From: Candidatus Hydrogenedentota bacterium
GTDB lineage: Bacteria; Hydrogenedentota; Hydrogenedentia; Hydrogenedentales; SLHB01
Direction of reading: 5' to 3'
Length of the DNA: 64,000 nucleotides
NCBI GenBank assembly: GCA_045863295.1
Contig: BTWA01000028.1
Location: 5,274 to 69,273, forward strand
Part shown: piece after piece, positions 9,149 to 57,071 of the stretch
Numbering within the stretch: the stretch's first letter is position 1
Layout of the letters: each line of letters begins with the position of its first letter
The notes under the pieces: model-generated
Told to the model about the DNA's origin: nothing
Database searches by the model: none
What the model saw: the letters and a program-made list of their open reading frames with translations, nothing else
Program-made: the position numbers and the translations under genes

Positions 9149-10462
9149 CTAAAAAATATAATCGTTCAGGATGTTTTCGAGCAATTCCTGCCGGCCGCTT
9201 TGAACGACGGGCTCTCCGTTCTTCAGCGTGTACGCTTCCAGCTCTTTAAAACCGGCCTTTCCCGACTCAATCTGTTTGCCGATACCAGAATTCCATCCCG
9301 CGTATCGCTTTTCCAAGGGTTTGATTAGAACTTTGTCCTTGATGAGTCGCGCTGCGGCTTTGAGGCCGCGGGCAAACGCGTCCATGCCGCCGATGTGGGC
9401 ATGAAACAGGTCCGCGGGATCGGTGGACTGACGTCGCAACTTGGCATCAAAATTCAGGCCACCGCTCTTGAAACCACCGCCTTTTAAAATGGTGTGCATA
9501 GCAAGTGTCGTGTCGTATAGGTCCGTCGGAAACTGATCCGTATCCCAGCCGAGGAGTTGATCACCGCGGTTCGCGTCCACCGATCCAAGCAGCCCGGTCG
9601 CCACGCAGAACTCGAGTTCGTGGTGAAACGTGTGACCTGCAAGAGTTGCGTGGTTCGCTTCGATATTCATCTTGAAATGGGGCAACAGTCCGTAGGCACT
9701 TAAAAACGAGTGGCAACTTGCGGCATCGAAATCGTACTGGTGTTTGGTTGGCTCTTTGGGTTTCGGTTCGATGAAGAATTGGCCTTTAAATCGAATCGCC
9801 TTTTTGTATTCGACGGCCATATTCAAAAATGCCCCGAGGTGATCGAGTTCGCGCTTGAGGTCAGTGTTGAGCAGGGTCTCGTATCCTTCGCGTCCGCCCC
9901 AGAAGACGTATCCCTGGGCGCCCAGTTCGTGGCTCACTTCCATGGCTTTCTTCACCTGGGCGGCGGCAAAGGCAAACACCGCGGGCGACGGATTGGTGGC
10001 GGCCCCGGACATGTATCGGGGATGCGTAAACAGCGAAGCCGTGCCCCACAGGGGCTTGATTCCCGTTGCTTTCTGGAGTGTCTTGGCGATCTTAACAATG
10101 TGATCGAGGTTCTTGTTGGTCTCAGCGAGCGTGGCGCCTTCGGGGGCGATGTCGCGATCGTGAAAGCACCAGTAGTTCACGCCTATCTTGGTGAAAAACT
10201 CAAACGCAGCATACATCGTATTCTCTGCAATCGCGATGGGACTGCTGCCGGCGTTATAGGAACGCGACATGGTGGGAACGCCAAAGGGATCGGCACCCAG
10301 ATTCTTGAACGTGTGCCAGTAACAAACGGAAAACCGGAGGTGCTCCTCCATTGTTTTTCCGAGCACTTTTTCCTTGGGATTGTAGTGTTTGAAAGCCAGC
10401 GGATTCTTTGATTTCGAGCCTTCGTATTGGATGGTCTTAATACCAGGAAAAAACTCTGCCAT
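9149..10462 (-). CDS. xylA: Xylose isomerase
   Basis: Unmistakable XylA sequence (...[18 protein letters not shown]..., ...[16 protein letters not shown]...). The likely start is the internal ATG ([15 protein letters not shown]) about 48 nt inside the listed ORF, giving about 437 aa. Confidence 0.9.
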
Positions 10463-10546
10463 GGATGAAATCCCCTTTTGAAGTAGTAACCGGAAGTCTC
10501 GATTATACATGGCAGACTTTGTGCATTCACATGTATCGCAATACGA

Positions 10547-11449
10547 TCACCTGCCGCGCACTGCACAATATAATGCCTTGAGGCTCTCTACGTGCCATGG
10601 CTGTCGAATGGTCGCTTTCAACGCGTACTTTCGCGCGGTACGGACATTCCCAATCCCGAGAGCCCACCATGCCCACTTCAAATATGTACCGGCTTCGGAC
10701 TGGCTGGGCGGAATAGCCGGAATTAAGTCCCCCGGAACTGGTAGCCCGCGACGTTCCATCGTCTCTTTCAGCGCCCGGAATGCGGCCATGCGCTGCTTCT
10801 CGTAGGTGTCATGGCTCAGGCTTTTCAGGTGCTGCCGGTATCTCAAAAGCATTTCCGGGAGATTGGCCAATCGCCCGCGTTCCGCCATCCGCAGAAAGAG
10901 GTCGTAGTCTTCGCTTCCCTCAAATCCCGTGCGGTAGCCGCCCGCGGCGATCGCGACGGAGCGCCGCAACATGCAGGACGGATTGACGATGGCCGCGCTG
11001 CTATTGGGCGCGAGGTGCCAAGCTTCAATTTCTTCATGGGATTCGAGGCACTCAAGTTCGGTAAGCGCATCACCGTCAGGATCGACGAGCATCGCTTTTG
11101 CCCCCAACACCACGCATTCGGGATGGTCATCCATATACGTCAGTTGCCGTGCAAACCGCTCGGGAAGTGCCACGTCATCGGAATCCATCCAGGCAATCAA
11201 TTCGCACGACGCCTCGTGCAAAAGTTCATTGCGGACATTGGAAATGCCTCGATTCTCATGCGAGATCACGCGGATTCGCCGGTCCCGGTCCGCGAGCGAC
11301 TTCAATATTGCGACCGAGGCGTCATTGGATCCGTCATTGACGGCGACCAGCTCAAAATCCGAAAAACTTTGATCCAGGATGCTTTGTACCGCCTCCAGCA
11401 GATATCGCTCCGCATTGTAGACGGCCATGCAGCAGGAAATTCTGGGCAT
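10547..11449 (-). CDS. Glycosyltransferase family 2
   Basis: N-terminus MPRISCCMAVYNAERYLLEAVQSILDQSF..., then a DxD-type DSDD, typical of GT2. Confidence 0.8.
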   Translation of the reverse strand: MPRISCCMAVYNAERYLLEAVQSILDQSFSDFELVAVNDGSNDASVAILKSLADRDRRIRVISHENRGISNVRNELLHEASCELIAWMDSDDVALPERFARQLTYMDDHPECVVLGAKAMLVDPDGDALTELECLESHEEIEAWHLAPNSSAAIVNPSCMLRRSVAIAAGGYRTGFEGSEDYDLFLRMAERGRLANLPEMLLRYRQHLKSLSHDTYEKQRMAAFRALKETMERRGLPVPGDLIPAIPPSQSEAGTYLKWAWWALGIGNVRTARKYALKATIRQPWHVESLKALYCAVRGR

Positions 11450-36546: not shown

Positions 36547-37902
36547 ATGAGCCAGTGCAACGGCACACACCGTATTCCAGGTTGCAGGCGATTGCGGTAT
36601 GGGATCGTTATTCCACTTGCTTTCCTCTCTGCTGGAATTGTAGCCGCGGACGACACGTCGTTGGCAAATGCCATTCTAGGGGACACGCGTCTGGACACCG
36701 TATTGACCCTTGCCAGGTCCACTGTTTCATCGGGTTTCAGCGCGGGATCGGGGTACGGCGAAGTCTGGATTCGCGACTTTACCACGTTTATGGAACTTGC
36801 CTGTGAAGTTCATCCCAAAGAACTTGTGCGCGACAAACTCCTGACCTTTTTCCACTTTCAGACCGAAAATGGGGATATCGCCGATGGATACATCCCCAGA
36901 GAGCAGGCGAACATCTCTTATAAGTACCGCGAAAGCGCGTCGATGCCGGACGTGCTCGCACACAAGAATACAGTGGAAACGGACCAAGAAAGCTCGCTTG
37001 TCATTGGCGTTTGCCGATATGCGCGTTGTACCGGGGACACGGGGATCTTTGCGGAAGACATCAACGACATGACTGTCTCACAGCGTTTGGAACGTGCACT
37101 CGGTTATGTGCACGGACATCGGTTCGATGTTACGCACGGTCTGGTGTGGGGCGCCACGACGGCTGACTGGGGCGACGTTCAACCCGAACATGAATGGGGC
37201 GTCGAACTTGACGAAAGCAGCCATCTTGCGATCGACATTTATGACAACGCATTGTACCTAGTTGCCATTGACGAATACCTGAATTCGGGAGCTGCGATTG
37301 ACGAGGACACGCGGATCAAATGGCATGGAATTCGCCAGACTATTGCGGACGCCGTACGCGCTCATCTCTGGGACAAGGACCGTGGCAAGTTCGTGCCGCA
37401 TATTTATCTCGAATCGTCGCCGTTTCCGGCAAGTTATGACGAGTCTGCCGTTCACTTTCACGGCGGCACAGCGGTTGCAATTGAGGCTGGACTCTTGTCC
37501 AGGCATGAAGTTACCCATGTACTACGTCAGATGAGGGCGAATGTACAGGCCGCCGGCGCGGCCTCCATCGGTTTGACTGTGTATCCTCCCTATCCAAGAG
37601 GCTTCTTCAAGAACCCCGGAATGGGGCCATACAGTTACCAGAATGGCGGTGATTGGACATGGTTCGGCGCGCGAATGATCAGGCAACTTGTACGGCATGG
37701 CCTGGTTGAGGAAGCGTACACCGAGTTGTTGCCAATGCTTGATCGAGTTATTGCCAATAAGGGTTTTCATGAGTGGTACACTGTGGACAACAAACCCAAG
37801 GGATCGGACACGTACCGAGGGTGCGCGGGAGTACTATACTCGGCCATTGTTGACCTGAGGGCTTGGGCTGCATCTCACGCGAATCTGGATATCAAGGAGT
37901 AG
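36547..37902 (+). CDS. Putative (alpha/alpha)6-barrel glycoside hydrolase (GDE_C/GH63/GH15-like)
   Basis: ATG at 36547 with AGGGGG upstream and a signal-like N-terminus. Motifs GYGEVWIRDF, DWGDVQPEHEWG and YQNGGDWTWFGARMI resemble six-hairpin glycosidases. The family assignment is tentative. Confidence 0.5.
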   Translation: MSQCNGTHRIPGCRRLRYGIVIPLAFLSAGIVAADDTSLANAILGDTRLDTVLTLARSTVSSGFSAGSGYGEVWIRDFTTFMELACEVHPKELVRDKLLTFFHFQTENGDIADGYIPREQANISYKYRESASMPDVLAHKNTVETDQESSLVIGVCRYARCTGDTGIFAEDINDMTVSQRLERALGYVHGHRFDVTHGLVWGATTADWGDVQPEHEWGVELDESSHLAIDIYDNALYLVAIDEYLNSGAAIDEDTRIKWHGIRQTIADAVRAHLWDKDRGKFVPHIYLESSPFPASYDESAVHFHGGTAVAIEAGLLSRHEVTHVLRQMRANVQAAGAASIGLTVYPPYPRGFFKNPGMGPYSYQNGGDWTWFGARMIRQLVRHGLVEEAYTELLPMLDRVIANKGFHEWYTVDNKPKGSDTYRGCAGVLYSAIVDLRAWAASHANLDIKE

Positions 37903-38611
37903 TACCTTTGATCACCGCTCTCAGTGAGTTCAAAATTAACTTGGTGATGGCAATTTTTTGGGCTGGTGAACCTGCCGCGAGCCTCTGATTGACTTCTAGT
38001 TCAATGCCGAGATAGCGTGCGGCCGAATATCGTCTCCTTAAGTGCGTAGTGAATCCGTCGGAAACACCCCGGTAGGGCGCATTCCGCCGCACCACGTACT
38101 CCGGTGCGATATCGTGAATCAAGCATTGCCACCGGTGGCAAAGCGCCTTCTCCCCCGGCCGCTTTGGATCGTATAACAAGCCGACGTCCATCCGTCTGAC
38201 TTGCCCGTGAAGGACGGGCGTAAATGTATGTACGGAGACATGCAAGACCCGGTCGTGATTAGTTAGCAGTCCTTCAATCTTCCTTTCGACTTCAGTCCGA
38301 TACGGCATATAGTACGTCGAGAGAATCGACTCTCGAACGGCATCCGGCGCATTCTTTGTGATGTCTGAGAACAAGGAGGGATTTCCGGGAGACCGGTTGA
38401 GTTCCACTAGCAAGCGAGTAATCGTGGAAAAAAGCAGTGGTGCATTCAGTTCTTTGGCGAGACAGCGTGCCAGAGGCAGCGCGCCGGGATCGTAACCCCG
38501 ATGGCTCTCCAGGCGATTATTATGTCCTTTGAAGATCGCCAGGTACTGCTTTGGTACCCGGTTGCCTCCATGTTCACACGTGAACAGGAGTGCCGTGGAG
38601 CGCGCCATCAA
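37892..38611 (-). CDS. N-formylglutamate amidohydrolase (FGase)-family hydrolase
   Basis: N-terminus ...LLFTCEHGGNRVP... and downstream ...HVSVHTFTP... are typical of the FGase/zinc-carboxypeptidase-like family. Last gene of a 4-gene overlapping operon. Confidence 0.75.
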   Translation of the reverse strand: MMARSTALLFTCEHGGNRVPKQYLAIFKGHNNRLESHRGYDPGALPLARCLAKELNAPLLFSTITRLLVELNRSPGNPSLFSDITKNAPDAVRESILSTYYMPYRTEVERKIEGLLTNHDRVLHVSVHTFTPVLHGQVRRMDVGLLYDPKRPGEKALCHRWQCLIHDIAPEYVVRRNAPYRGVSDGFTTHLRRRYSAARYLGIELEVNQRLAAGSPAQKIAITKLILNSLRAVIKGTTP

Positions 38612-39845
38612 ACTGTTCTCCGCGTTGCAGACATTCGCACAAGGAGCGGTACACGTTCTTCAGATTTGCAACATTCACGTTGCCGCCGACGGCGCGCACG
38701 ATGCGCCGGGAAAGCGTGCCATGGCGAAGAATATGGTTTACCGGCCCGAGTAGTCTTACTTCATCGTCAGAGCACTTTGGAACCAGGTTCTTATAGATGT
38801 GACTCCACAGTTCACCCGCCGTAGCGCTTTGCCCGTTGAAGCCGAACGCGTTGAGGTATTCGCGATTGTCTATCGGCGCATCTTCGGCCGTCCGAACGGT
38901 ATCGCGCAGAATTTCCGCCAACGGAGGTACGGCCCACTTTTTTTGTTCGTCCCAACCGCACCAGTCCTCTTCCACTAACGCCCTAATTGTCTTAGTAACC
39001 AACATCACAATGGCAATATCCGCGGCGGGGCATTCCTGGACGTCCAGGAGGCGCACCTCAATGGTGTCTCTTTCGAAACGTGCAATGGCTCCGCGAGCAT
39101 TGAGCCATTCATCCTGCAAAACGGCATCAGGATCAAGCGGAGCAATTTCACGGTACAACGGCTGCAAGATATTCCGTTCATATTCGTCTGGCGTGAAAAC
39201 GGGTTCCGGTATGACGTCGCCGGTGACCATGGGCACCTTGGCACAGTTTGTTCGATATACTTCCAGCCGGTAATCCATGGGGCCCGCTAGTTTGGCGTCG
39301 GCAAACGGGGAACTGGCGGCTATAGCGGGCAGGAGGGGCAGGACTAGCCGAATCGCGGCATGCAGGCGGCCAAATTCCTCGTCGCCGCAAAACGGCAAAT
39401 TGATGTGCGCGCTCTGCAGATTGGCCCATCCGTGTCCCTTGCAATCGAATATGCGGTTGAAGGCATCGTAAATGGGCGAGTTTTCATGAGGCCAGAGCCT
39501 CATTTCGGCGTGCGGATCCATCCACGGGTGCATGGCGGTGGGCATCAGTCGCCCGCGCATTGGATTCAGAATGCGGTTTACGTCTCGTACGTGTTGGTCG
39601 AAATGGGTCGAAAGGCCCGCAAGCGACGCAGCCGGCCCGTTTGTTTTGAATTCGATGACGTGCAGGGTCAACTCATTTGACCAATTCAGCAGTCCGCGGT
39701 CAACTTCGTTAACGTACGAGCCGGCGACTGCTTTGATGACTTCGTCGCATGCGGGAAAGGTATTCAGCGAGTCCTCGCGGACGATCATGTATTCAAGTTC
39801 CACGCCAAACCCTTCGAACAAATGCAGGGGGGAATTTGGTGTCAT
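38574..39845 (-). CDS. Glutamate-cysteine-ligase family 2 (GCS2, YbdK-type) carboxylate-amine ligase
   Basis: N-terminus ...LHLFEGFGVELEYMIV..., with full-length resemblance to YbdK-type GCS2 proteins. Its start overlaps the upstream ATP-grasp stop (ATGA). Confidence 0.8.
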   Translation of the reverse strand: MTPNSPLHLFEGFGVELEYMIVREDSLNTFPACDEVIKAVAGSYVNEVDRGLLNWSNELTLHVIEFKTNGPAASLAGLSTHFDQHVRDVNRILNPMRGRLMPTAMHPWMDPHAEMRLWPHENSPIYDAFNRIFDCKGHGWANLQSAHINLPFCGDEEFGRLHAAIRLVLPLLPAIAASSPFADAKLAGPMDYRLEVYRTNCAKVPMVTGDVIPEPVFTPDEYERNILQPLYREIAPLDPDAVLQDEWLNARGAIARFERDTIEVRLLDVQECPAADIAIVMLVTKTIRALVEEDWCGWDEQKKWAVPPLAEILRDTVRTAEDAPIDNREYLNAFGFNGQSATAGELWSHIYKNLVPKCSDDEVRLLGPVNHILRHGTLSRRIVRAVGGNVNVANLKNVYRSLCECLQRGEQFDGALHGTPVHV

Positions 39846-41311
39846 TTGTGCGTGCCAGGCTCCTTCAGGGCTTCGATCCGGCTCAGGAAGACGCCCATTA
39901 TCTTGTTGTAGAGTTCGTCTTTCACAAGGCTGTCTTCCACCCCGGCATCAATGCTTGGATTATCGTTCACCTCGATTACACTCACCTGGTGCCGGTGCTC
40001 TTTCAAATCAACTCCGTAGAGTCCATCTCCGATGAGATTGGCGGCCTTGACGGCGGTCTTGATGACGGCAGACGGGGTTGCCTCGATGGGCACGCAATCA
40101 TGCTCGCCGTAGGTAATGTTTCCACTTTGTTCCGTTTTCTGTATTTGCCAGTGTTTGCTTGCCATGTGATACCGGCACACGTATAGCGGCTCGCGGTTAA
40201 GTACACCGACGCGCCAATCAAACGTGGTGGGCATAAACTCTTGTGCGATGATCAATTCGGACCTGTCCAGCAAGCGTTCGCATTCGCTTAGAAGCGTCTC
40301 GCGATCGTTCACCTTGATGACACCTTGGGAAAAAAAGCTGTCCGGTTGTTTCAAGATGCAGGGCAGTCCAATAAGGTCGTGCAAATCTTCGTAATTATCG
40401 CGGTGAACAATGACGGTTTTTGGGGTGCGAATGTTGTTCTTGCCGAGCAACTCGGCCAGATACACTTTGTTGCTGCAGCGCAGAATGGATTCAGGGTCGT
40501 CGATGACGACTAGTCCGTCGGCCGCCGCCCTTTGCGCAAACCGGAAGGTATGGTGATTGACCTGGGTCGTCTCCCGGATGAAGAGAGCATCGAACTCGGC
40601 GAGCCGGCCGTAGTCTTCCTTTTCGATGAACTCTGGCTCCATGCCAAGCGCTTTCGCGGCGCGTTCGAACTTCCGCAAGGCGCGCTCATTGGACGGCGGC
40701 ATTTTCTCTTCCGGATTGTGCAAGATGGCGATGTCGTATCGTGCAGTCGGCTTTTTCCGCACGGCAAACCGGGGACGCGAGAAATAGACCTTAGCTGCTT
40801 CCAGCACGAATTCCCAATGCTCGTCGGGAATGTCCTTTGCTCCAATTGGGGCTATCCGCTGCAACTCCCACTGTTCTTCAAAGGTGAAATGAGCCCGCAT
40901 CAGGGGCACATGAAACGCGTTCATGAGTGCTTTGCACAGTTTGTCGTACCTTCGGGCCATATTCTGGCCGAAATAGATGCTTAGGGTGAATTCCTTTGAT
41001 TGCAGCGGCCGAAGGCAGTGCTGCATCATCTCTTCCAGGTCTTCGGATGCGTAGCGCAGCAGCGTGACGGACTTCATGTCTTGAATCGTGGTCACGGCAG
41101 GGACGGGCCGGTGTCCGCGCGCGGCGGCAATCAGTGAAACATAATAGCCGAGACTCTGATACCGATACGACCGGCAGAGATTGAATACCAGCATGCCGCG
41201 GTCGCCGCTATATTCCTGGCTGGTAACATAGGTCCGGGCATCCACTACATCGACCCCGGGAAAATGGAGTGGCCAATGCTTGGTGTTGTCAACGATAATG
41301 AGCGCTTGCAT
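39842..41311 (-). CDS. RimK-like ATP-grasp ligase with about 190-aa N-terminal (RLAN-type) domain
   Basis: C-terminal 290 aa are RimK-like (...NKVYLAELLGKNNIRTPKTVIVH..., ...GLPCILKQPDSFFSQGVIKV..., ...IEVNDNPSID...). The N-terminal 190 aa form a separate domain consistent with the 'RimK-like ATP-grasp N-terminal' domain that I recall from comparative-genomics work. Confidence 0.8.
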   Translation of the reverse strand: MQALIIVDNTKHWPLHFPGVDVVDARTYVTSQEYSGDRGMLVFNLCRSYRYQSLGYYVSLIAAARGHRPVPAVTTIQDMKSVTLLRYASEDLEEMMQHCLRPLQSKEFTLSIYFGQNMARRYDKLCKALMNAFHVPLMRAHFTFEEQWELQRIAPIGAKDIPDEHWEFVLEAAKVYFSRPRFAVRKKPTARYDIAILHNPEEKMPPSNERALRKFERAAKALGMEPEFIEKEDYGRLAEFDALFIRETTQVNHHTFRFAQRAAADGLVVIDDPESILRCSNKVYLAELLGKNNIRTPKTVIVHRDNYEDLHDLIGLPCILKQPDSFFSQGVIKVNDRETLLSECERLLDRSELIIAQEFMPTTFDWRVGVLNREPLYVCRYHMASKHWQIQKTEQSGNITYGEHDCVPIEATPSAVIKTAVKAANLIGDGLYGVDLKEHRHQVSVIEVNDNPSIDAGVEDSLVKDELYNKIMGVFLSRIEALKEPGTHK

Positions 41312-42032
41312 GGCTTGGGGAGCGATCTCCGTCTTTCGGCTGGAGGACGAGCAGATTGGCGTCGTAGGTCAGAACGCCCAGGAGGATGGAACAGATCAGC
41401 CGGTCCATATTGACTTTGTAGAATTGGGTATCGGAGACCGGATTGGGGTCCTGCGGGTCGGCCACGAGCACTTCCCGATCTTCCTTGTCGTATCCACAGA
41501 GCACCACAAAATGGCCCTGCGGCTCGCCGCGTACATCGTCGAAATCGTCGTTGGGACCCCACTCTCGGGCGGTTCGGTACAGGTAGGTGGAACTCAACCC
41601 AGTGAGTATGGGAACGCCGCGCTTCAAGTACCGGCGAATGAGTGACGGGGTAAGGTCTTGCAACCCCAGCCTACCGCCGGCGTCAAGGTATTTCAGATAG
41701 GCTTGCGTAGCCACGTGGAACCGCTTTCCGGACTTGTTTTTGGCTTGGGCGCGTAGCTTGTCGGCCAAATCGGTGCCGGGAACGTCAAACCATGTAGGGT
41801 CGAACATTTGCAGGTTGAAAGTATAGATTTTCGCGTCATATCCTCGCTGCAGGGCCTGCCCAGCCAGCATTACGGCCAATGTACCGCCATTTTCGAGCCG
41901 GGGCGTGGCATCGATAACCTCTTCCAGAGAATACGTGTCGCCGTAGTAATTGTAGACGGCATGCAGACACGTGGGTCCGCAGGTAAATTCGTCGGGTTGG
42001 GCCAATATGCCTAATTGAAGCCGGGCGTCCAT
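41289..42032 (-). CDS. Standalone peptidase C39-like (double-glycine-leader-type papain-fold cysteine peptidase)
   Basis: Start chosen at the ATG at 42030-42032 (MDARLQLG...) with AAGGA 5 nt upstream. Upstream ORF sequence overlaps the divergent + gene start and was discarded. C39 signature QPDEFTCGPTCLHAVYNYYGD (Q...C-G-x-x-C-L) and His motif GHFVVLCGYDKEDREVLVADP (H-h-V-V...DP). First gene of the operon. Confidence 0.7.
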   Translation of the reverse strand: MDARLQLGILAQPDEFTCGPTCLHAVYNYYGDTYSLEEVIDATPRLENGGTLAVMLAGQALQRGYDAKIYTFNLQMFDPTWFDVPGTDLADKLRAQAKNKSGKRFHVATQAYLKYLDAGGRLGLQDLTPSLIRRYLKRGVPILTGLSSTYLYRTAREWGPNDDFDDVRGEPQGHFVVLCGYDKEDREVLVADPQDPNPVSDTQFYKVNMDRLICSILLGVLTYDANLLVLQPKDGDRSPSHASAHYR

Positions 42033-42216
42033 GTGTCCTTCTTGGGGCGCGTACCAATCCCCCATCGGCCTGTCAACGCGCCTCTGTCCTTGATTATACA
42101 GGTTGTAAAGCGACCAGCGGTAGCGCACGGCCCCCGGTGGAGAGGGGTTGGCAGACCTGTTCGCGTGATGTATAGTGGGGTATCGGGCAAGAAGCTTCAA
42201 TTCCTGGGAGTCCATC

Positions 42217-44007
42217 ATGCGGATCAGAAATACTGTAGCGCTGTTCTTTGTCGTTGCGGCCTTGGTATGCAGTTCCGCCATAGCCGAAGTGAAGGTTGGC
42301 GATATTCCGGCCGAATTCCGATTTAAGGATATCCGGTATGTCGAGCGTTCGTTGAGTGAGTTGGGCGAGTCGAAAGCCATAGTGGTGATGGCTTCCTCAA
42401 CCACCTGCCCGGTGGCTCAACGCTACTTGCCGGTTTTTCAGGCGTTGTCGGATCAATTCGGACATGAGGCCACGTTTGTCCTCATAAATGTCAGCGCTGA
42501 TGACTCCATCATGGATATGGCTCAACAGGCCATTGACTATAATCTCACGGTAACGCTGGCGAAAGACATAGACGGCACCGCTGTGAAAGCGCTTGGGCTG
42601 ACTCGAACGCCGGAGGTGGTGGTTTTGGACAGCGAAAGGCGCGTTCGATACCGCGGGCGTGTAGACGGTCAACACCGGGTTAGTGGAGTGAGTCCGGATT
42701 CGGGTCGTGCAGACCTTGCCTTGGCGTTGGAACAGGTATTGACAGGAAAGACGGTCGAAGTCACAGAGACACCGGTTGACGGCTGCGTAATATCTGAACC
42801 AGTGACGACGGCGGAAAAGGCTTACACGTATACGAGAGACGTTGCACCGATCTTGGACGCCCATTGTGTGAAATGTCACCGGGTCGATGGCGGGGCTCCA
42901 TTTTCATTGCAAACCTATTCGCGCGCGGCCGCTATGGCAGACATGATTGCGGAAGTCATTACTGAGGAGCGTATGCCACCGTGGTACGCGCATTCCGCGC
43001 ACGGAACGTTTGTGAATGCGCCGTCCATTTCGGACAGTGACCGGCGAATTGTGGCCGGGTGGGCTCGCGGCGGAAAGATTGAAGGCGAGGCCGAAGACCG
43101 GCCGGAAGCGCCGGTGTTTGCGGACTCCAAATGGCGCATTGGAGAACCGGATCTGGTGATCACCGCGAAGGATGAAATGCAGATTCCGGCAACGGGCTAC
43201 ATCAAGTACCAGTACATTCCGATGCCGTATGTATTTCCGCACGACACGTGGATTCAGGGTCTGGAGATCAGGCCCGAGAACGCAACGGTGCTTCACCACT
43301 GCAACATGATCTATATGCTGCCGGGCCAAGAGTATAGCCAAGAGACTCAATTCCTTACGGGATACGTACCGGGGGGTGCACCCGTGGATTTGGACAAGAA
43401 CCGGGCAATGATGATACCCAAAGGTGCGACGCTGGTTCTCCAAGCCCATTACGTGACTACCGGCAAAGAAGAAAGGGACCGTGTCTCCATTGGTATCCGG
43501 TTCGCAAAAGAGCCGGTGGAGAAAAGAGTCTATTATAAAATCATTAACAACGATTCATTTGCGATTCCAGCGGGCGATCCATTTTATTGCGTAACAGCCG
43601 AGGATTCGATGGAGGAGGACAGTACGGGCATCGCGATGTTTTCACACATGCACCTGCGCGGACGGGACATGCTGTTCAATGCGCACTTCCCTGACGGCAA
43701 GAAGGAAACGTTGCTGAGTATTCCCAACTATGACTTTAATTGGCAGCTGTCGTATGTGTGGGAACCTTTCACGAAGAAGTTTCCCAAAGGCACGCGCATC
43801 GAAGTGATTGCACACTACGACAACTCTTCGTTCAATCCGTACAATCCAGATCCTTCCGCGGTGGTCAAGGATGGCCCTCAAACCTTTGAAGAAATGATGT
43901 ACGGGTTCTTCTTCTACACCCGGGATGGCGAAAACCTCAATCTGGCCGTGAATCCGGAAACTGGCGAAAGCATGGGTGAAAAAGTGGCGGCTGCCGTGGC
44001 GCCGTAA
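42217..44007 (+). CDS. Secreted three-domain redox protein: thioredoxin/redoxin-like + Planctomycete-type cytochrome c (CxxCH) + copper type-II monooxygenase-like C-terminal domain
   Basis: ATG at 42217 (GGGAG upstream) with a signal peptide. Redoxin-like ...AIVVMASSTTCPVAQRYLP.... Heme motif ...VAPILDAHCVKCHRVDGGAPF.... C-terminal His/Met pattern VLHHCNMIY ... HYVTTG ... FSHMHLRGRDM ... M, reminiscent of PHM/DBH CuH/CuM ligands. Confidence 0.6.
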   Translation: MRIRNTVALFFVVAALVCSSAIAEVKVGDIPAEFRFKDIRYVERSLSELGESKAIVVMASSTTCPVAQRYLPVFQALSDQFGHEATFVLINVSADDSIMDMAQQAIDYNLTVTLAKDIDGTAVKALGLTRTPEVVVLDSERRVRYRGRVDGQHRVSGVSPDSGRADLALALEQVLTGKTVEVTETPVDGCVISEPVTTAEKAYTYTRDVAPILDAHCVKCHRVDGGAPFSLQTYSRAAAMADMIAEVITEERMPPWYAHSAHGTFVNAPSISDSDRRIVAGWARGGKIEGEAEDRPEAPVFADSKWRIGEPDLVITAKDEMQIPATGYIKYQYIPMPYVFPHDTWIQGLEIRPENATVLHHCNMIYMLPGQEYSQETQFLTGYVPGGAPVDLDKNRAMMIPKGATLVLQAHYVTTGKEERDRVSIGIRFAKEPVEKRVYYKIINNDSFAIPAGDPFYCVTAEDSMEEDSTGIAMFSHMHLRGRDMLFNAHFPDGKKETLLSIPNYDFNWQLSYVWEPFTKKFPKGTRIEVIAHYDNSSFNPYNPDPSAVVKDGPQTFEEMMYGFFFYTRDGENLNLAVNPETGESMGEKVAAAVAP

Positions 44008-44029
44008 TCCAATATGCATACGCTTGTAT

Positions 44030-44068
44030 AGAGATGAACGGTCATGGTGCCGTTCATCTCTGTTTTTT
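44030..44068 (+). terminator. Rho-independent terminator
   Basis: gagatgaacgg-tcatggtgc-cgttcatctc perfect inverted repeat, immediately followed by tgtttttt. Confidence 0.85.
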
Positions 44069-44083
44069 AAGGGGACTGCATGG

Positions 44084-44530
44084 ATGACCTTCCAAATAAG
44101 ACCATTCATGGATTCGGATACTGATGCTGTAGTGGATCTCTGGCGGGCATGCGGGCTAACTGTAGCGTGGAATGATCCGTACAAGGATATTTTGCGGAAG
44201 CGGCATGTGGGGCCGGAGTTCTTTCTCGTGGCGGAAGCGACCCACCGTATCGTTGGAACAGTCATGGGTGGTTACGACGGCCACCGAGGAAACGTAAACT
44301 ACTTGGGAGTTCTCCCGGATGTCAGGGGCGACGGGGTGGGCCGACAACTCATGGATGCCGTTGAAGTGCTGCTAATGGCGGCCGGATGTCCAAAGATAAA
44401 CTTGTGCGTACGTGCCACAAACATAGGCGCCATCGGATTTTATGAGACACTTGGCTATTCGCGCGATTCGGTGGTCTTGCTTGGAAAGCGACTAATTCCG
44501 GACATTCTGGACGTCCCATCGGGAATTTGA
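44084..44530 (+). CDS. GNAT-family N-acetyltransferase
   Basis: ATG at 44084 (AAGGGGA upstream). About 148 aa with an acetyl-CoA-binding region ...RGDGVGRQLMDAVEVLLMAAGC... (Q/RxxGxG/A-type motif). Confidence 0.8.
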   Translation: MTFQIRPFMDSDTDAVVDLWRACGLTVAWNDPYKDILRKRHVGPEFFLVAEATHRIVGTVMGGYDGHRGNVNYLGVLPDVRGDGVGRQLMDAVEVLLMAAGCPKINLCVRATNIGAIGFYETLGYSRDSVVLLGKRLIPDILDVPSGI

Positions 44531-44883: not shown

Positions 44884-46281
44884 TTACTGGCCCGGCCTTT
44901 GGTGCGTATCGACTATTGCATCCATCCATTGTGAAAGTCTTCCTCGCAACTCGGTGACCACCGCCACGTTAGCTGGATCGCTTATCACGTTCTTCAGTTC
45001 GAACGGATCGTCAAGCTGATCGAACAGCGCTTCTTCGTTTGTGTCGGTCAGGACGTATTTCCACCGGTCGCCACGAATCATACGGTGACCCATACCTACC
45101 GTGGCACCCACGCCGGTACATTCGCTGAAGACGTAGTCGCGAACTGTCGCATTTGGATTCGCAAAGACCGGAGTGAGCGAACGGCCTTGAATGTGATCGG
45201 GAAGGCGAATCCCCGCGAGATCCAGGAGCGTAGGATAGATATCCAGGCTGGAAACGAGGGCTTTGCTTCGCGCACCTTCTTTGACCACGCCAGGACCGTG
45301 AGCCAACATTGGCACACGCACCGATTCTTCATGCATGGTGATCTTATTACCGAGGCCGTGATTACCCAGATGGTACCCGTTATCCGCCAGGAACAGGATT
45401 ACCGTATTTTCGTAGTGGCCCGAATCCTTCAGGTTGGAGATCAATTCGCCGATCTGGCGATCAAGGTGCGAAATAGTTGCGTAATAGGCACGGGTGAACT
45501 CGACAATCTGGTCCCTGGTGCGCGGCGGCCCTGAAGGGAGATCGTTATAGTTCTTCACGTACTCCGAATCGCGGTAGTACTGTTCACCCGGTTTGCCTTG
45601 GTTGTAGAGGCTGCCTTTCGGAGGCTTTTCCATAAAGTTTGGGTCCGGTTGGATGTTTGCCTCTTTATAGAGATCGAGAAATTCCTGTTCAGGCAGTAGC
45701 GGCACGTGAGGTTGATGAGGCGCGACCCACAACAGGAACGGAGACTCCTTCCCCTTTCGGCCTGCCAGAAATTGTGCCGCATCGGCGAACGTGGTCAGGT
45801 CGTTGTAGTCACCGTTCTCTTTGCCTTCAGTGAATCCATATTCCAACGGAGATTTCAAATGGGACTTGCCGCAGAAGCCGGTTACATAGCCGGCATCGGT
45901 AAGGTCGTGTGCGAACGTTCTGTATTTGCCTTGATCCACGACGTTGGTCAAAAATCCTGTTTGATCCAAGGCCACCGAGCCGTGCTGCTGCGGGAAAAGA
46001 CTGGTAAGAATGCTGGAGCGGCTGGCCACGCAAATAGGCGACGCAACATAGGCATGTTCGAATATCGTGCCGCCGCTTGCGAGGCGATCAAGGTTCGGCG
46101 TTTGCACGATGGGGTTGTTGTACCCAATTGCGCGGTACACCCAGTCGTCGGCAAAAATCACAAGCAAGTTTGGCCGTCGTGATTGCTGCGCGTAGCCGGC
46201 TTCGCCCGACGGAGCTAGCAAGGCAAGGGTTCCCGCGGCCGCGCATCGGAGAAACTGCCGTCGATTGGGTTGGTAGGTCAT
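44884..46281 (-). CDS. Tat-secreted formylglycine-dependent sulfatase (arylsulfatase family)
   Basis: Start chosen at MTYQPNRRQFLRCAAAGTLALLA (twin-arginine signal). Sulfatase N-terminal motif ...LLVIFADDW... and FGly motif region SPICVASRSSILTS (a C-x-A-x-R variant of C/S-x-P/A-x-R). Confidence 0.85.
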   Translation of the reverse strand: MTYQPNRRQFLRCAAAGTLALLAPSGEAGYAQQSRRPNLLVIFADDWVYRAIGYNNPIVQTPNLDRLASGGTIFEHAYVASPICVASRSSILTSLFPQQHGSVALDQTGFLTNVVDQGKYRTFAHDLTDAGYVTGFCGKSHLKSPLEYGFTEGKENGDYNDLTTFADAAQFLAGRKGKESPFLLWVAPHQPHVPLLPEQEFLDLYKEANIQPDPNFMEKPPKGSLYNQGKPGEQYYRDSEYVKNYNDLPSGPPRTRDQIVEFTRAYYATISHLDRQIGELISNLKDSGHYENTVILFLADNGYHLGNHGLGNKITMHEESVRVPMLAHGPGVVKEGARSKALVSSLDIYPTLLDLAGIRLPDHIQGRSLTPVFANPNATVRDYVFSECTGVGATVGMGHRMIRGDRWKYVLTDTNEEALFDQLDDPFELKNVISDPANVAVVTELRGRLSQWMDAIVDTHQRPGQ

Positions 46282-46562
46282 GTTTCTACCCTTTTGTTTG
46301 GTTCGTGTTGGAACTTGCCAATTGATTTCCGCCCGAGTATGCATCGTATCGTAGGGGTTGAAGAATGCGAATCGCAACATCTTTACCGGTTTCACGGCAA
46401 GTATACCAACACAATGGCCTTGTAAAATGCGAGCTTTGGAAAGACACCAGACGACGGATCATTCGACAAATTATCGTTCTTGGAGCATGGTTCCCATGTG
46501 GCTCCCGTTGCGGCGGTCACGGATGTGGTGGAGGCACTTGCGAAGTCGACGACTGACTTGCC

Positions 46563-55766: not shown

Positions 55767-57071
55767 ATGAAGAAGACTGAGTCCGTTCGGTGGAGTCTCA
55801 TGGCACTGTGTTGCTTCGTCACGGTGGCGGGGGCTGTCGCGGACCGATACGATGAACCGCCGATTGAGTACAGCAAGGCCGACGATAGCAATGCCGTGTC
55901 CCAAATGGCGGCCGATTTGGCCGATGGCACGCTGGTTCTGGAACGGAGTGCTCCGTTTGGATATCTGAAGCCGTTGCTGGCGTACCTGGGAGTGCCGCAG
56001 GAGTCTCAAGTGCTGGTTTTCTCCAAAACCAGTCTCCAGACCCGATTCATTTCGCCCGATAGCCCTCGCGCTATTTACTTTAATGACGACATCTATGTCG
56101 GGGCCGTGAAGTACAGCGGCACAATAGAGATTTCGACGGCGGACCCGAAACTTGGAACGGCATTCTACACGCTCTCAGAACACGAATCGGGCCGGCCCAT
56201 GATAACTCGTCAAACCGACAACTGTCTGCAATGTCACGCGTCCACCCTTACCGACGGATTTCCGGGGCACATAGTACGATCTGTTTATCCCGATGCCGAG
56301 GGCTTTCCCATTTTGCAGGCGGGCACCCATGTCACGACGCATGAGAGCCCATTTGTTGAGCGCTGGGGCGGCTGGTATGTCACCGGAACGCACGGAAGCA
56401 TGCGGCACATGGGCAATTCGATTGCCGTTCCCACCGAGTACGCTGCGGAAATCGATACCGAGGCGGGAGCAAACAGAACTGATCTGACACACGTGGCGGA
56501 TCTGGGAGATTACCTGACCCCACACAGCGACATTGTCGCCCTGATGGTTCTTGAACATCAGACACGAATGCATAACTTGATGACGTCCGCGGATTTCGAA
56601 ACCCGTCTCGCCTTGCGTGATCAGGCCATCATGGACGAGGCGCTCAATCGGTCTGGCGGTGAGCTGAGCGAATCCACGCAACGCCGGATTGCAAGCGCCG
56701 GATCCAAGCTGGTTGACTACTTGCTGTTCGCGAGGGAGGTGCCCCTGAAAAGTGCCATCGCTGGAACGTCGGGGTTCGCGGAGTGGTTCACAGCCCAAGG
56801 TCCACGAGACAGCCTTGGCCGTTCCGTGCGCGAGTTTGATCTCCGGACCCGCCTGTTCAAGTATCCGTTAAGTTACCTCATATATTCTGCGCAATTCGAT
56901 GCACTACCTGTGGAAATGAGAGAATACGTTTATGCTCGGCTGTGGGGCATCCTTACTGGCGGGGCCGATGCAGAACGCTACCCCCATTTGGATGAAGGAA
57001 CGCGCAAGGCTATCCGCCAAATCCTGGCGGAAACCAAGACAAACCTTTCCAGCCATTGGAAAGCTGATTAA
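55767..57071 (+). CDS. Secreted protein with a single c-type heme-binding motif (putative cytochrome c-family protein)
   Basis: Signal peptide MKKTESVRWSLMALCCFVTVAGAVA. CXXCH in ...TRQTDNCLQCHASTLTDGFPGH.... No further domain recognised. Confidence 0.5.
   Translation: MKKTESVRWSLMALCCFVTVAGAVADRYDEPPIEYSKADDSNAVSQMAADLADGTLVLERSAPFGYLKPLLAYLGVPQESQVLVFSKTSLQTRFISPDSPRAIYFNDDIYVGAVKYSGTIEISTADPKLGTAFYTLSEHESGRPMITRQTDNCLQCHASTLTDGFPGHIVRSVYPDAEGFPILQAGTHVTTHESPFVERWGGWYVTGTHGSMRHMGNSIAVPTEYAAEIDTEAGANRTDLTHVADLGDYLTPHSDIVALMVLEHQTRMHNLMTSADFETRLALRDQAIMDEALNRSGGELSESTQRRIASAGSKLVDYLLFAREVPLKSAIAGTSGFAEWFTAQGPRDSLGRSVREFDLRTRLFKYPLSYLIYSAQFDALPVEMREYVYARLWGILTGGADAERYPHLDEGTRKAIRQILAETKTNLSSHWKAD

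Follow-up and report, generated by a model that had tools for sequence, protein, structure and literature searches.

The window examined here, a 64,000-nucleotide stretch of a Candidatus Hydrogenedentota contig (BTWA01000028.1, positions 5,274 to 69,273; assembly GCA_045863295.1), contains at positions 42217 to 44007 a gene whose product raises the question of what a single exported polypeptide might do with a thiol-redox fold, a c-type heme site, and a set of His and Met residues arranged like copper ligands. A first-pass annotation, made from the DNA letters, had described the product as a secreted protein with thioredoxin-like, c-type cytochrome, and copper monooxygenase domains, and each of the three is indeed present. 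We favor the reading that the product is a PHM/DBH-type copper monooxygenase of the periplasm, equipped with its own heme c electron donor, and we regard this as probable. The underlying assignment of domains and metal ligands is firmer, and we hold it with high confidence.

The C-terminal region carries the predicted fold and the copper-ligand residues of PHM and DBH

Peptidylglycine alpha-hydroxylating monooxygenase (PHM, the catalytic core of PAM) and dopamine beta-hydroxylase (DBH), the animal enzymes behind amidated peptide hormones and noradrenaline, are textbook examples of non-coupled binuclear copper monooxygenases, in which two copper ions (CuH and CuM) lie ~11 Å apart across a solvent cleft and ascorbate serves as the reductant. 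An AlphaFold model of the window protein, built on 38 homologs, reached a predicted local distance difference test score of 89 and a predicted template modeling score of 0.86. When this model was compared with the PDB by using Foldseek, the C-terminal ~300 residues were placed on human DBH (4zel; E value 4e-12, 315 columns) and on ~25 rat PHM entries (E values 1e-9 to 1e-11, ~290-300 columns, with PHM-normalized template modeling (TM) scores of ~0.55-0.6). The matches to both enzymes span both β-sandwich subdomains. The root-mean-square deviations are high (6-7 Å), which is consistent with an altered hinge angle between the subdomains.

The same correspondence was obtained by aligning a family profile that included relatives lacking the thioredoxin-like (Trx-like) domain with rat PHM, whose catalytic-core sequence had been verified against PDB entries beforehand. 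The hhalign comparison returned a probability of 93.9% (E value 1.5e-7, score 56.2, 259 columns), whereas 30 shuffled PHM sequences scored 23.6 or less and the reversed sequence scored 15.1. A shallow profile restricted to three-domain proteins gave the identical ligand mapping at a probability of only ~5% and was superseded by the deeper one. Six residues map one-to-one onto the copper ligands of PHM, with H360, H361, and H411 at the positions of H107, H108, and H172 of CuH, and with H477, H479, and M560 at the positions of H242, H244, and M314 of CuM. For the copper ligands of PHM and its scheme of electron transfer, we rely on the summary in PMC9064607. The first-pass annotation had likened the His/Met spacing of this region to the copper type II ligand pattern and had asked whether these residues might instead miss the ligand positions; all of them align with PHM ligands at the above probability and are invariant in the homologs.

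Six of the 14 His residues in the protein are invariant among the 38 homologs, namely H221 of the heme site and the copper-ligand candidates H360, H361, H411, H477, and H479, and M560 is likewise invariant. The heme and copper ligands are also unchanged in a set of 16 sequences that includes 12 Trx-less relatives, for which mean column identity is 31%. In a wider sample, 127 representatives have the C-terminal domain in full, and 126 to 127 of these keep the HH, HxHxxG, and EM motifs, the last two being present in all 127. The protein therefore has the core of two β-sandwiches, the three-His set of CuH, and the two-His-one-Met set of CuM, and metal binding is predicted at both sites.

Only the fold search and the alignment with the more diverse profile reveal the homology to PHM and DBH. 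Some relatives come closer to the established domain models: P0117 and P0156 pass the cut-off of 23 bits for PF03712 (Cu2_monoox_C) with 31.3 and 25 bits, respectively, P0156 also matches PF01082 (Cu2_monooxygen; E value 6e-4, 20.5 bits against a cut-off of 30), and PF03712 is detected at an E value of 1 or less in 12 of the 38 homologs.

A cytochrome c domain accompanies the copper domain in every complete relative examined

By its signature, the segment comprising residues ~200-290 is predicted to be a mono-heme, His/Met-ligated cytochrome c of class I, given the CxxCH motif, the distal Met, and the predicted export of the protein. The heme site noted in the first-pass annotation is CVKCH, and its residues C217, C220, and H221 are invariant, together with M253 and P254, both in the 38 three-domain homologs and in the alignment that includes Trx-less relatives. 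Haem_bd matches all 38 homologs and Cytochrome_CBB3 matches 34 of them, in every case under the Pfam cut-off; the window protein scores 17.5 bits with Cytochrome_CBB3 against a cut-off of 27. The further suggestion that the heme lies in a Planctomycete cytochrome context was rejected, because PSCyt1 (PF07635) finds no match in the window protein and only one among the 38 homologs (E value 0.16). For comparison, a genuine PSCyt1 domain encoded by a gene that neighbors the homolog of locus L005 scores 103.7 bits.

Domain architectures across the family point to the parts that matter most. Among 156 representatives, 84 combine Trx-like, cytochrome c, and copper domains, 54 combine only the latter two, and the remainder are fragments. 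Every N-terminally complete representative has a cytochrome c domain directly upstream of the copper domain, whereas the Trx-like domain is present in ~60% of the family and missing in ~40%. At least 37 complete relatives without it retain all heme and copper ligands, and in 12 intact two-domain proteins, all of which carry a signal peptide of their own, the CxxCH, M-P, HH, H, HxH, and E-M residues are invariant. Because the cytochrome is always present and the Trx-like domain is often missing, we conclude that the heme c and the two copper sites constitute the conserved core and that the Trx-like domain is accessory. This distribution lends support to the earlier proposal that the heme serves as electron donor to a copper oxygenase, and the obligatory fusion is our main argument that heme c would replace ascorbate as the reductant.

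The exported N-terminal Trx-like domain lacks a CxxC motif

The N terminus of the protein, MRIRNTVALFFVVAALVCSSAIA followed by E, is its only hydrophobic stretch and fits a Sec signal peptide, on which basis the secretion claimed in the first-pass annotation is predicted. Periplasmic export is also required for the attachment of a c-type heme.

The domain that follows exceeds the Pfam cut-offs for AhpC-TSA (44.5 bits, cut-off 26), Redoxin (42.3 bits, cut-off 26.6), and Thioredoxin_8. Its closest PDB entries are 3u5r, 2cvb/2ywo, and 2ywi (phmmer E value 1e-9, profile E value 3e-23), and Foldseek comparison of the AlphaFold model with 3u5r, 2cvb, and 2ywi gave E values of ~1e-13 and TM scores of ~0.8. 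The redoxin-like character proposed at first pass is thus borne out, but the count of a single Cys is not: C64 (in TTCP) and C190 (in DGC) both lie within the redoxin domain, both are invariant in the 38 homologs, and they are present in 119 of 120 cases. C64 aligns with the second Cys of CNHC in 2cvb and 2ywi, with the lone CP-motif Cys of 3u5r, and with the Cys at the selenocysteine position of a deiodinase. There is no CxxC of the ResA, TlpA, or CcmG kind in the domain, which reads S-T-T-C64-P where the family consensus is TTxCP; only the second Cys position of the CNHC in 2cvb and 2ywi is retained. The invariant distal C190 may act as the redox partner of C64. With regard to the peroxiredoxin motif PxxxTxxC and the conserved Arg that goes with it, a Thr or Ser is found at -3 from C64 and R130 is invariant, but the Pro at -7 is absent, and the alignment with Prx5 (2xhf) is weak, with the Cys offset by 2 residues. 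No in-frame stop was found at the C64 position among 82 homolog loci, all of which contain a single full-length open reading frame (ORF), and therefore there is no evidence of selenocysteine variants.

Relatives are named in databases as 'redoxin domain-containing protein', 'alkyl hydroperoxide reductase', 'hypothetical', or 'thiol-disulfide isomerase', and names of this kind would make the protein a thiol peroxidase or thiol-disulfide oxidoreductase in which the Trx/peroxiredoxin-like domain is catalytic and the rest is accessory. The thiol-enzyme models named above are indeed the only ones to exceed Pfam cut-offs, C64 does occupy the position of the deiodinase and CP-motif Cys residues, and one homolog adjoins an iron superoxide dismutase gene. 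Nevertheless, we consider such an enzyme very unlikely, because the Trx-less relatives keep every heme and copper ligand, the CxxC motif is absent, and the most conserved residues are the metal ligands of the other two domains. A two-domain protein of 406 residues from Bryobacteraceae (P0189, HZO54725.1) is called 'thiol-disulfide isomerase' in NCBI although it lacks the Trx-like domain, and its name was evidently carried over from three-domain relatives. NCBIfam holds no model for the family.

A proposed path of electrons from heme c to a copper-bound oxygen

PHM and DBH require two sequential one-electron reductions, for which ascorbate is the usual source, and the route of electrons from the reductant to CuH and on to CuM is still debated (PMC9064607). 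For the window protein, we propose that one heme would be covalently joined to C217 and C220 after Sec export, with H221 and M253 as its axial ligands. This heme would accept single electrons from a periplasmic pool, supplied by soluble cytochromes or by the thiol domain of the same chain, and would pass them to CuH at H360, H361, and H411, a role that ascorbate fills in the animal enzymes. CuH would in turn reduce the catalytic CuM at H477, H479, and M560, where O2 would bind and a C-H bond of a substrate other than a C-terminal glycine peptide would be hydroxylated. The Trx-like domain, through C64 and C190, would be an accessory thiol-redox module dispensable for this core chemistry; it could admit electrons from a membrane thiol-reductant pathway, control peroxide, or aid maturation.

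In PHM, residues R240, N316, and Y318 bind the carboxylate and backbone of the substrate. Because these residues are not kept, we do not expect a glycine-extended peptide to be the substrate, and the chemistry could differ from hydroxylation. The CuM subdomain instead carries two invariant, family-specific motifs, FxWQxxY and HxDNSxxNPxNPDP. Neither has a counterpart in PHM, and the second contains a 7-residue insertion relative to that enzyme. The motifs may form a substrate-binding or an extra metal-binding loop, and their invariance suggests a defined substrate common to the whole family. Our confidence in any particular substrate is low.

Several findings weigh against a monooxygenase of the PHM/DBH type. 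The window protein itself falls below the Pfam cut-offs, with 11.6 bits for PF03712 (E value 0.19) against the required 23 and no match to PF01082. Plain hidden Markov model searches of PDB sequences, run with full-length and C-terminal profiles, returned no PHM or DBH chain. The residues that define the peptidylglycine site of PHM are lost, with R240 replaced by an invariant F475, N316 by a variable Y562, and Y318 by F564. When the ORFs of the 82 homolog loci were compared all versus all, no conserved neighbor or operon partner that would hint at a substrate or electron donor emerged. A full-text literature search, incomplete in its coverage, found no experimental study of the family, of bacterial PHM/DBH-like proteins, or of the fusion. 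Finally, some host bins are named as anaerobes, including a metagenome-assembled genome (MAG) labeled as Kuenenia, which is awkward for an O2-dependent enzyme, although binning errors are possible. The domain searches proposed at first pass were mixed in outcome: Redoxin/AhpC-TSA lay above the cut-off, the cytochrome and Cu2_monooxygenase models lay below theirs, and PSCyt gave nothing. Given the scores below Pfam thresholds and the missing PHM substrate site, we regard the protein as a bacterial variant of PHM/DBH rather than as a PHM/DBH orthologue.

The loss of the PHM substrate-binding residues would also suit a heme/copper redox protein that is built on the PHM fold and performs no substrate monooxygenation, but acts as a periplasmic oxidase or reductase that disposes of superoxide and H2O2 or of nitrite and NO, or handles copper, with electrons from thiols or cytochromes. 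The gene stands alone, is widely conserved, and has no partner genes, most members include a fused peroxiredoxin-like thiol domain, and the label of the source organism suggests a low-oxygen reactor. Moreover, PHM crystal structures with bound nitrite exist, as judged from PDB titles, and the copper sites of PHM react with peroxide (PMC9064607). However, the full CuH/CuM set is present, including the weak Met ligand, with Q-x-H-Y and E-M exactly as in the hydroxylating enzymes, and the extra invariant FxWQxxY and DNSxxNPxNPDP motifs of the CuM subdomain have more the look of a dedicated binding site than of a metal center alone. For these reasons we judge a purely redox function to be unlikely, though it deserves to be kept in view.

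Longer relatives raise the prospect that the same enzyme core acts on a polymer, such as a polysaccharide or cell-envelope glycan, in the manner of a lytic polysaccharide monooxygenase (LPMO) with a built-in cytochrome donor. Among 20 long relatives sampled, the C-terminal modules are varied and include CBM48/AMPK1_CBM (P0162 and P0206), a GDSL/AlgX-type esterase (P0180 and P0220), and an alpha/beta hydrolase (P0176). The window has a sulfatase gene close by, and the host phyla are known glycan degraders. Yet modules of this kind occur in a minority of the sample, the others being ankyrin, TPR, EF-hand, and GAF-like, the window protein has no carbohydrate-binding module, and neighboring sulfatase, DUF1501, and FGE genes were judged unremarkable in frequency, a judgment made without a background rate. 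A polymer substrate therefore seems quite unlikely to us. As clues to a substrate, the add-on modules were set aside as too heterogeneous to be decisive.

Returning to the heme-wired copper monooxygenase, we tentatively put forward a broader interpretation, in which the window protein would belong to a very large unrecognized bacterial clade of ascorbate-independent PHM/DBH-type enzymes that an obligatory cytochrome c wires to periplasmic carriers; at 50% identity, the clade would comprise at least 10,958 clusters. It could be what prokaryotes have in place of the animal enzymes of peptide amidation and catecholamine synthesis, and perhaps the stock from which those enzymes evolved, and its substrate might be a conserved periplasmic molecule bound through the family motifs of the CuM subdomain.

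The gene forms a transcription unit of its own

The features of the gene and its product are collected in Table 1. The 596-residue product has an identical counterpart in NCBI (P0001), annotated as hypothetical and derived from a Candidatus Hydrogenedentota MAG, and a sequence search returned more than 1,455 homologs. The ORF described at first pass is real, and its stated length of 597 residues corresponds to 597 codons including the stop. A GGGAG resembling a Shine-Dalgarno sequence lies 8-12 nucleotides ahead of the start codon. A longer version beginning at GTG 42175 is unlikely, because that GTG sits at the 3′ edge of the candidate -10 hexamer, the homologs begin at the equivalent Met, and the identical NCBI protein also has 596 residues. 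Promoter-like sites are no commoner in this region than in shuffled sequence, and the promoter candidate is suggestive only.

Table 1. Features of the gene at 42217-44007 and of its product (window coordinates).
Feature	Residues	Coordinates	Strand	Basis or remark
Candidate sigma-70-like promoter, TTGGCA-17-TATAGT		42148-42176	+	10/12 matches; 41 nucleotides 5′ of ATG
Complete gene	596 plus stop	42217-44007	+	ATG 42217; stop codon ends at 44007
Signal peptide (predicted), AIA before E	1-23	42217-42285	+	sole hydrophobic segment; homolog N termini equivalent
Thioredoxin/redoxin-like domain	25-193	42289-42795	+	Pfam, PDB sequence, and fold matches
Invariant Cys	C64	42406-42408	+	alignment of 38 homologs
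Invariant Cys	C190	42784-42786	+	alignment of 38 homologs
Mono-heme cytochrome c domain (by signature)	~200-290	42814-43086	+	invariant CxxCH and Met
CVKCH heme attachment	217-221	42865-42879	+	invariant
Putative axial ligand, in RMPP	M253	42973-42975	+	invariant; axial role inferred
PHM/DBH-like N-terminal β-sandwich, CuH subdomain	~300-434	43114-43518	+	Foldseek, hhalign
CuH ligand positions	H360/H361	43294-43299	+	hhalign to PHM H107/H108
CuH ligand position (H411) and non-ligand Q	Q409 and H411	43441-43449	+	hhalign to PHM Q170/H172
PHM/DBH-like C-terminal β-sandwich, CuM subdomain	~435-585	43519-43971	+	Foldseek, hhalign
CuM ligand positions (H477/H479)	H477-M478-H479	43645-43653	+	on PHM H242/H244
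Motif FxWQxxY	507-513	43735-43755	+	family-specific, invariant, CuM subdomain
Motif HxDNSxxNPxNPDP	533-546	43813-43854	+	family-specific, invariant, CuM subdomain
CuM ligand position (M560) and non-ligand E	E559-M560	43891-43896	+	on PHM E313/M314
Intrinsic-terminator-like hairpin		44028-44073	+	15-bp stem, then T run; 20 nucleotides past stop codon

Downstream on the same strand lies a gene for a GNAT acetyltransferase (44084-44530), whose likely start is ATG 44084; its mechanical ORF start at GTG 43976 would overlap the terminator-like hairpin. With the hairpin placed before the start at 44084, the gene at 42217-44007 is a single-gene transcription unit and is monocistronic. A sulfatase gene (Sulfatase plus SGSH_C) follows just downstream on the opposite strand (44884-46395).

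The divergent neighbor reported earlier was also found, with an intergenic gap given as 185 bp that amounts to 184 bp with the peptidase start codon at ATG 42032, or to 151 bp with a start at 42065. It belongs to an operon of four genes on the reverse strand (37892-42032) that encode a Peptidase_C39_2-like protein, an RLAN plus RimK-type ATP-grasp protein, GCS2 (glutamate-cysteine ligase family 2), and an N-formylglutamate amidohydrolase (FGase), an assembly that resembles a peptide/amide ligation-and-hydrolysis system. A functional link to this operon as a feature of the family was rejected, because the operon does not lie beside the homologs in the 82 loci; its adjacency is a local accident, not a partnership. 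Also rejected was a 434-residue ORF with one CxxCH (55767-57071, forward strand) as a paralog or partner, since BLASTP found it unrelated and Pfam gave no match at an E value of 0.1 or less; it may encode an uncharacterized heme protein.

Among the 82 loci, the commonest neighbors are genes for DUF1501 (16 loci), aldehyde dehydrogenase (10 loci), and PSCyt1-FGE proteins (10 loci), each of which represents a large paralogous family. We judge the frequencies of DUF1501, PSCyt1-FGE, and sulfatase neighbors, again without a background rate, to be unremarkable for large paralogous families. In locus L005 the PSCyt1-FGE gene (9511-11268, forward strand) encodes a PSCyt1 cytochrome c fused to an FGE-sulfatase domain, and similar ORFs are found in ~10 of the 82 loci. 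The contexts of P0038 and P0189, inspected singly, were uninformative and unrelated to each other.

The family is widespread among environmental bacteria

Full-length relatives with ~45-55% identity were located in 592 or more species-representative genomes, mainly of Planctomycetota, Verrucomicrobiota, and Hydrogenedentota. The wider family also includes a record from Acidobacteriota (Bryobacteraceae). Cultured carriers include Gemmata algarum, Singulisphaera sp. Ch08, and Planctomicrobium sp. SH661. With the C-terminal-domain profile, the cluster count cited above was obtained at an E value of 1e-3 or less, and 2,029 clusters remain at 1e-30 or less. Some homolog contigs carry labels from outside the main phyla, namely a Candidatus Kuenenia stuttgartiensis MAG (L044), Bifidobacteriaceae (L003), Bacteroidales (L076), and Nitrospirales (L059). 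These labels, which include anaerobes, could reflect binning errors or real transfers, and in both cases they matter for the question of an O2 requirement.

Variant architectures were seen in P0122 (1251 residues), P0148 (1064 residues), P0158, and P0231, as well as in P0162, P0206, P0180, P0220, and P0176. In some members the entire three-domain unit is repeated in tandem, and P0206 has a BlaR1-type M56 peptidase/sensor domain at its N terminus.

Comparison with known systems

If our interpretation is correct, the PHM/DBH family would extend beyond animals and algae and be widespread in environmental bacteria. A bacterial enzyme with a tethered heme c would offer a spectroscopically visible point of electron entry, so that transfer from heme to CuH to CuM could be measured directly. 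Re-annotation would be due for thousands of entries now called 'redoxin', 'thiol-disulfide isomerase', or 'alkyl hydroperoxide reductase', and Planctomycetota, Verrucomicrobiota, Hydrogenedentota, and Acidobacteriota could be searched for a new periplasmic reaction that depends on O2.

The closest counterparts are PHM and DBH, along with tyramine beta-monooxygenase and MOXD1 (PF01082 plus PF03712), which have the same fold of two β-sandwiches in both subdomains, six equivalent copper ligands, and the HH, LQxHY, HxHxxG[KR], and EM motifs in common with the window protein. By inference, they would also share the logic of long-range electron transfer from CuH to CuM. The window protein shares no more than 12-18% identity with PHM and DBH and stays under the Pfam cut-offs. 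Unlike these enzymes, it is bacterial and periplasmic, has a cytochrome c and, in most relatives, a Trx-like domain upstream, and presumably makes no use of ascorbate. It has neither the DOMON domain of DBH nor the PAL domain of PAM, and it differs from PHM in the replacement of R240, N316, and Y318 and in its additional FxWQxxY and DNSxxNPxNPDP motifs with their 7-residue insertion.

The N-terminal domain aligns end to end, over residues 25-193, with 3u5r (SMc02350), 2cvb/2ywo (Thermus thermophilus), and 2ywi (Geobacillus), and has in common with 3u5r, 2cvb, and 2ywi the CP-motif Cys, the C-terminal Cys of GC, and the T-P (cis-Pro) loop. Those proteins are stand-alone single domains that are uncharacterized, whereas the window protein is a fusion. 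Where the family has TTxC, 2cvb and 2ywi carry CNHC, the first Cys of which is missing here, as it is in 3u5r. ResA, StoA, TlpA, and CcmG are more distant relatives of this domain.

For the pairing of a heme donor with a copper oxygenase, functional analogies exist in the cytochrome domain of cellobiose dehydrogenase, which feeds electrons to LPMOs, and in the cytochrome b561/ascorbate system, which feeds DBH and PHM in secretory granules. The principle in common would be a one-electron heme carrier that serves a mononuclear copper oxygenase. The heme of the window protein would differ in being c-type, covalent, and on the same polypeptide, and no homology to either donor is known. A parallel case, rather than a relative, is provided by the PSCyt1-FGE-sulfatase fusions of Planctomycetes and Verrucomicrobia, exemplified by locus L005, in which a periplasmic cytochrome c is likewise joined to a domain from a copper/O2-dependent enzyme family, but the cytochrome is of another family (PSCyt1, with a strong match) and the catalytic fold is that of FGE.

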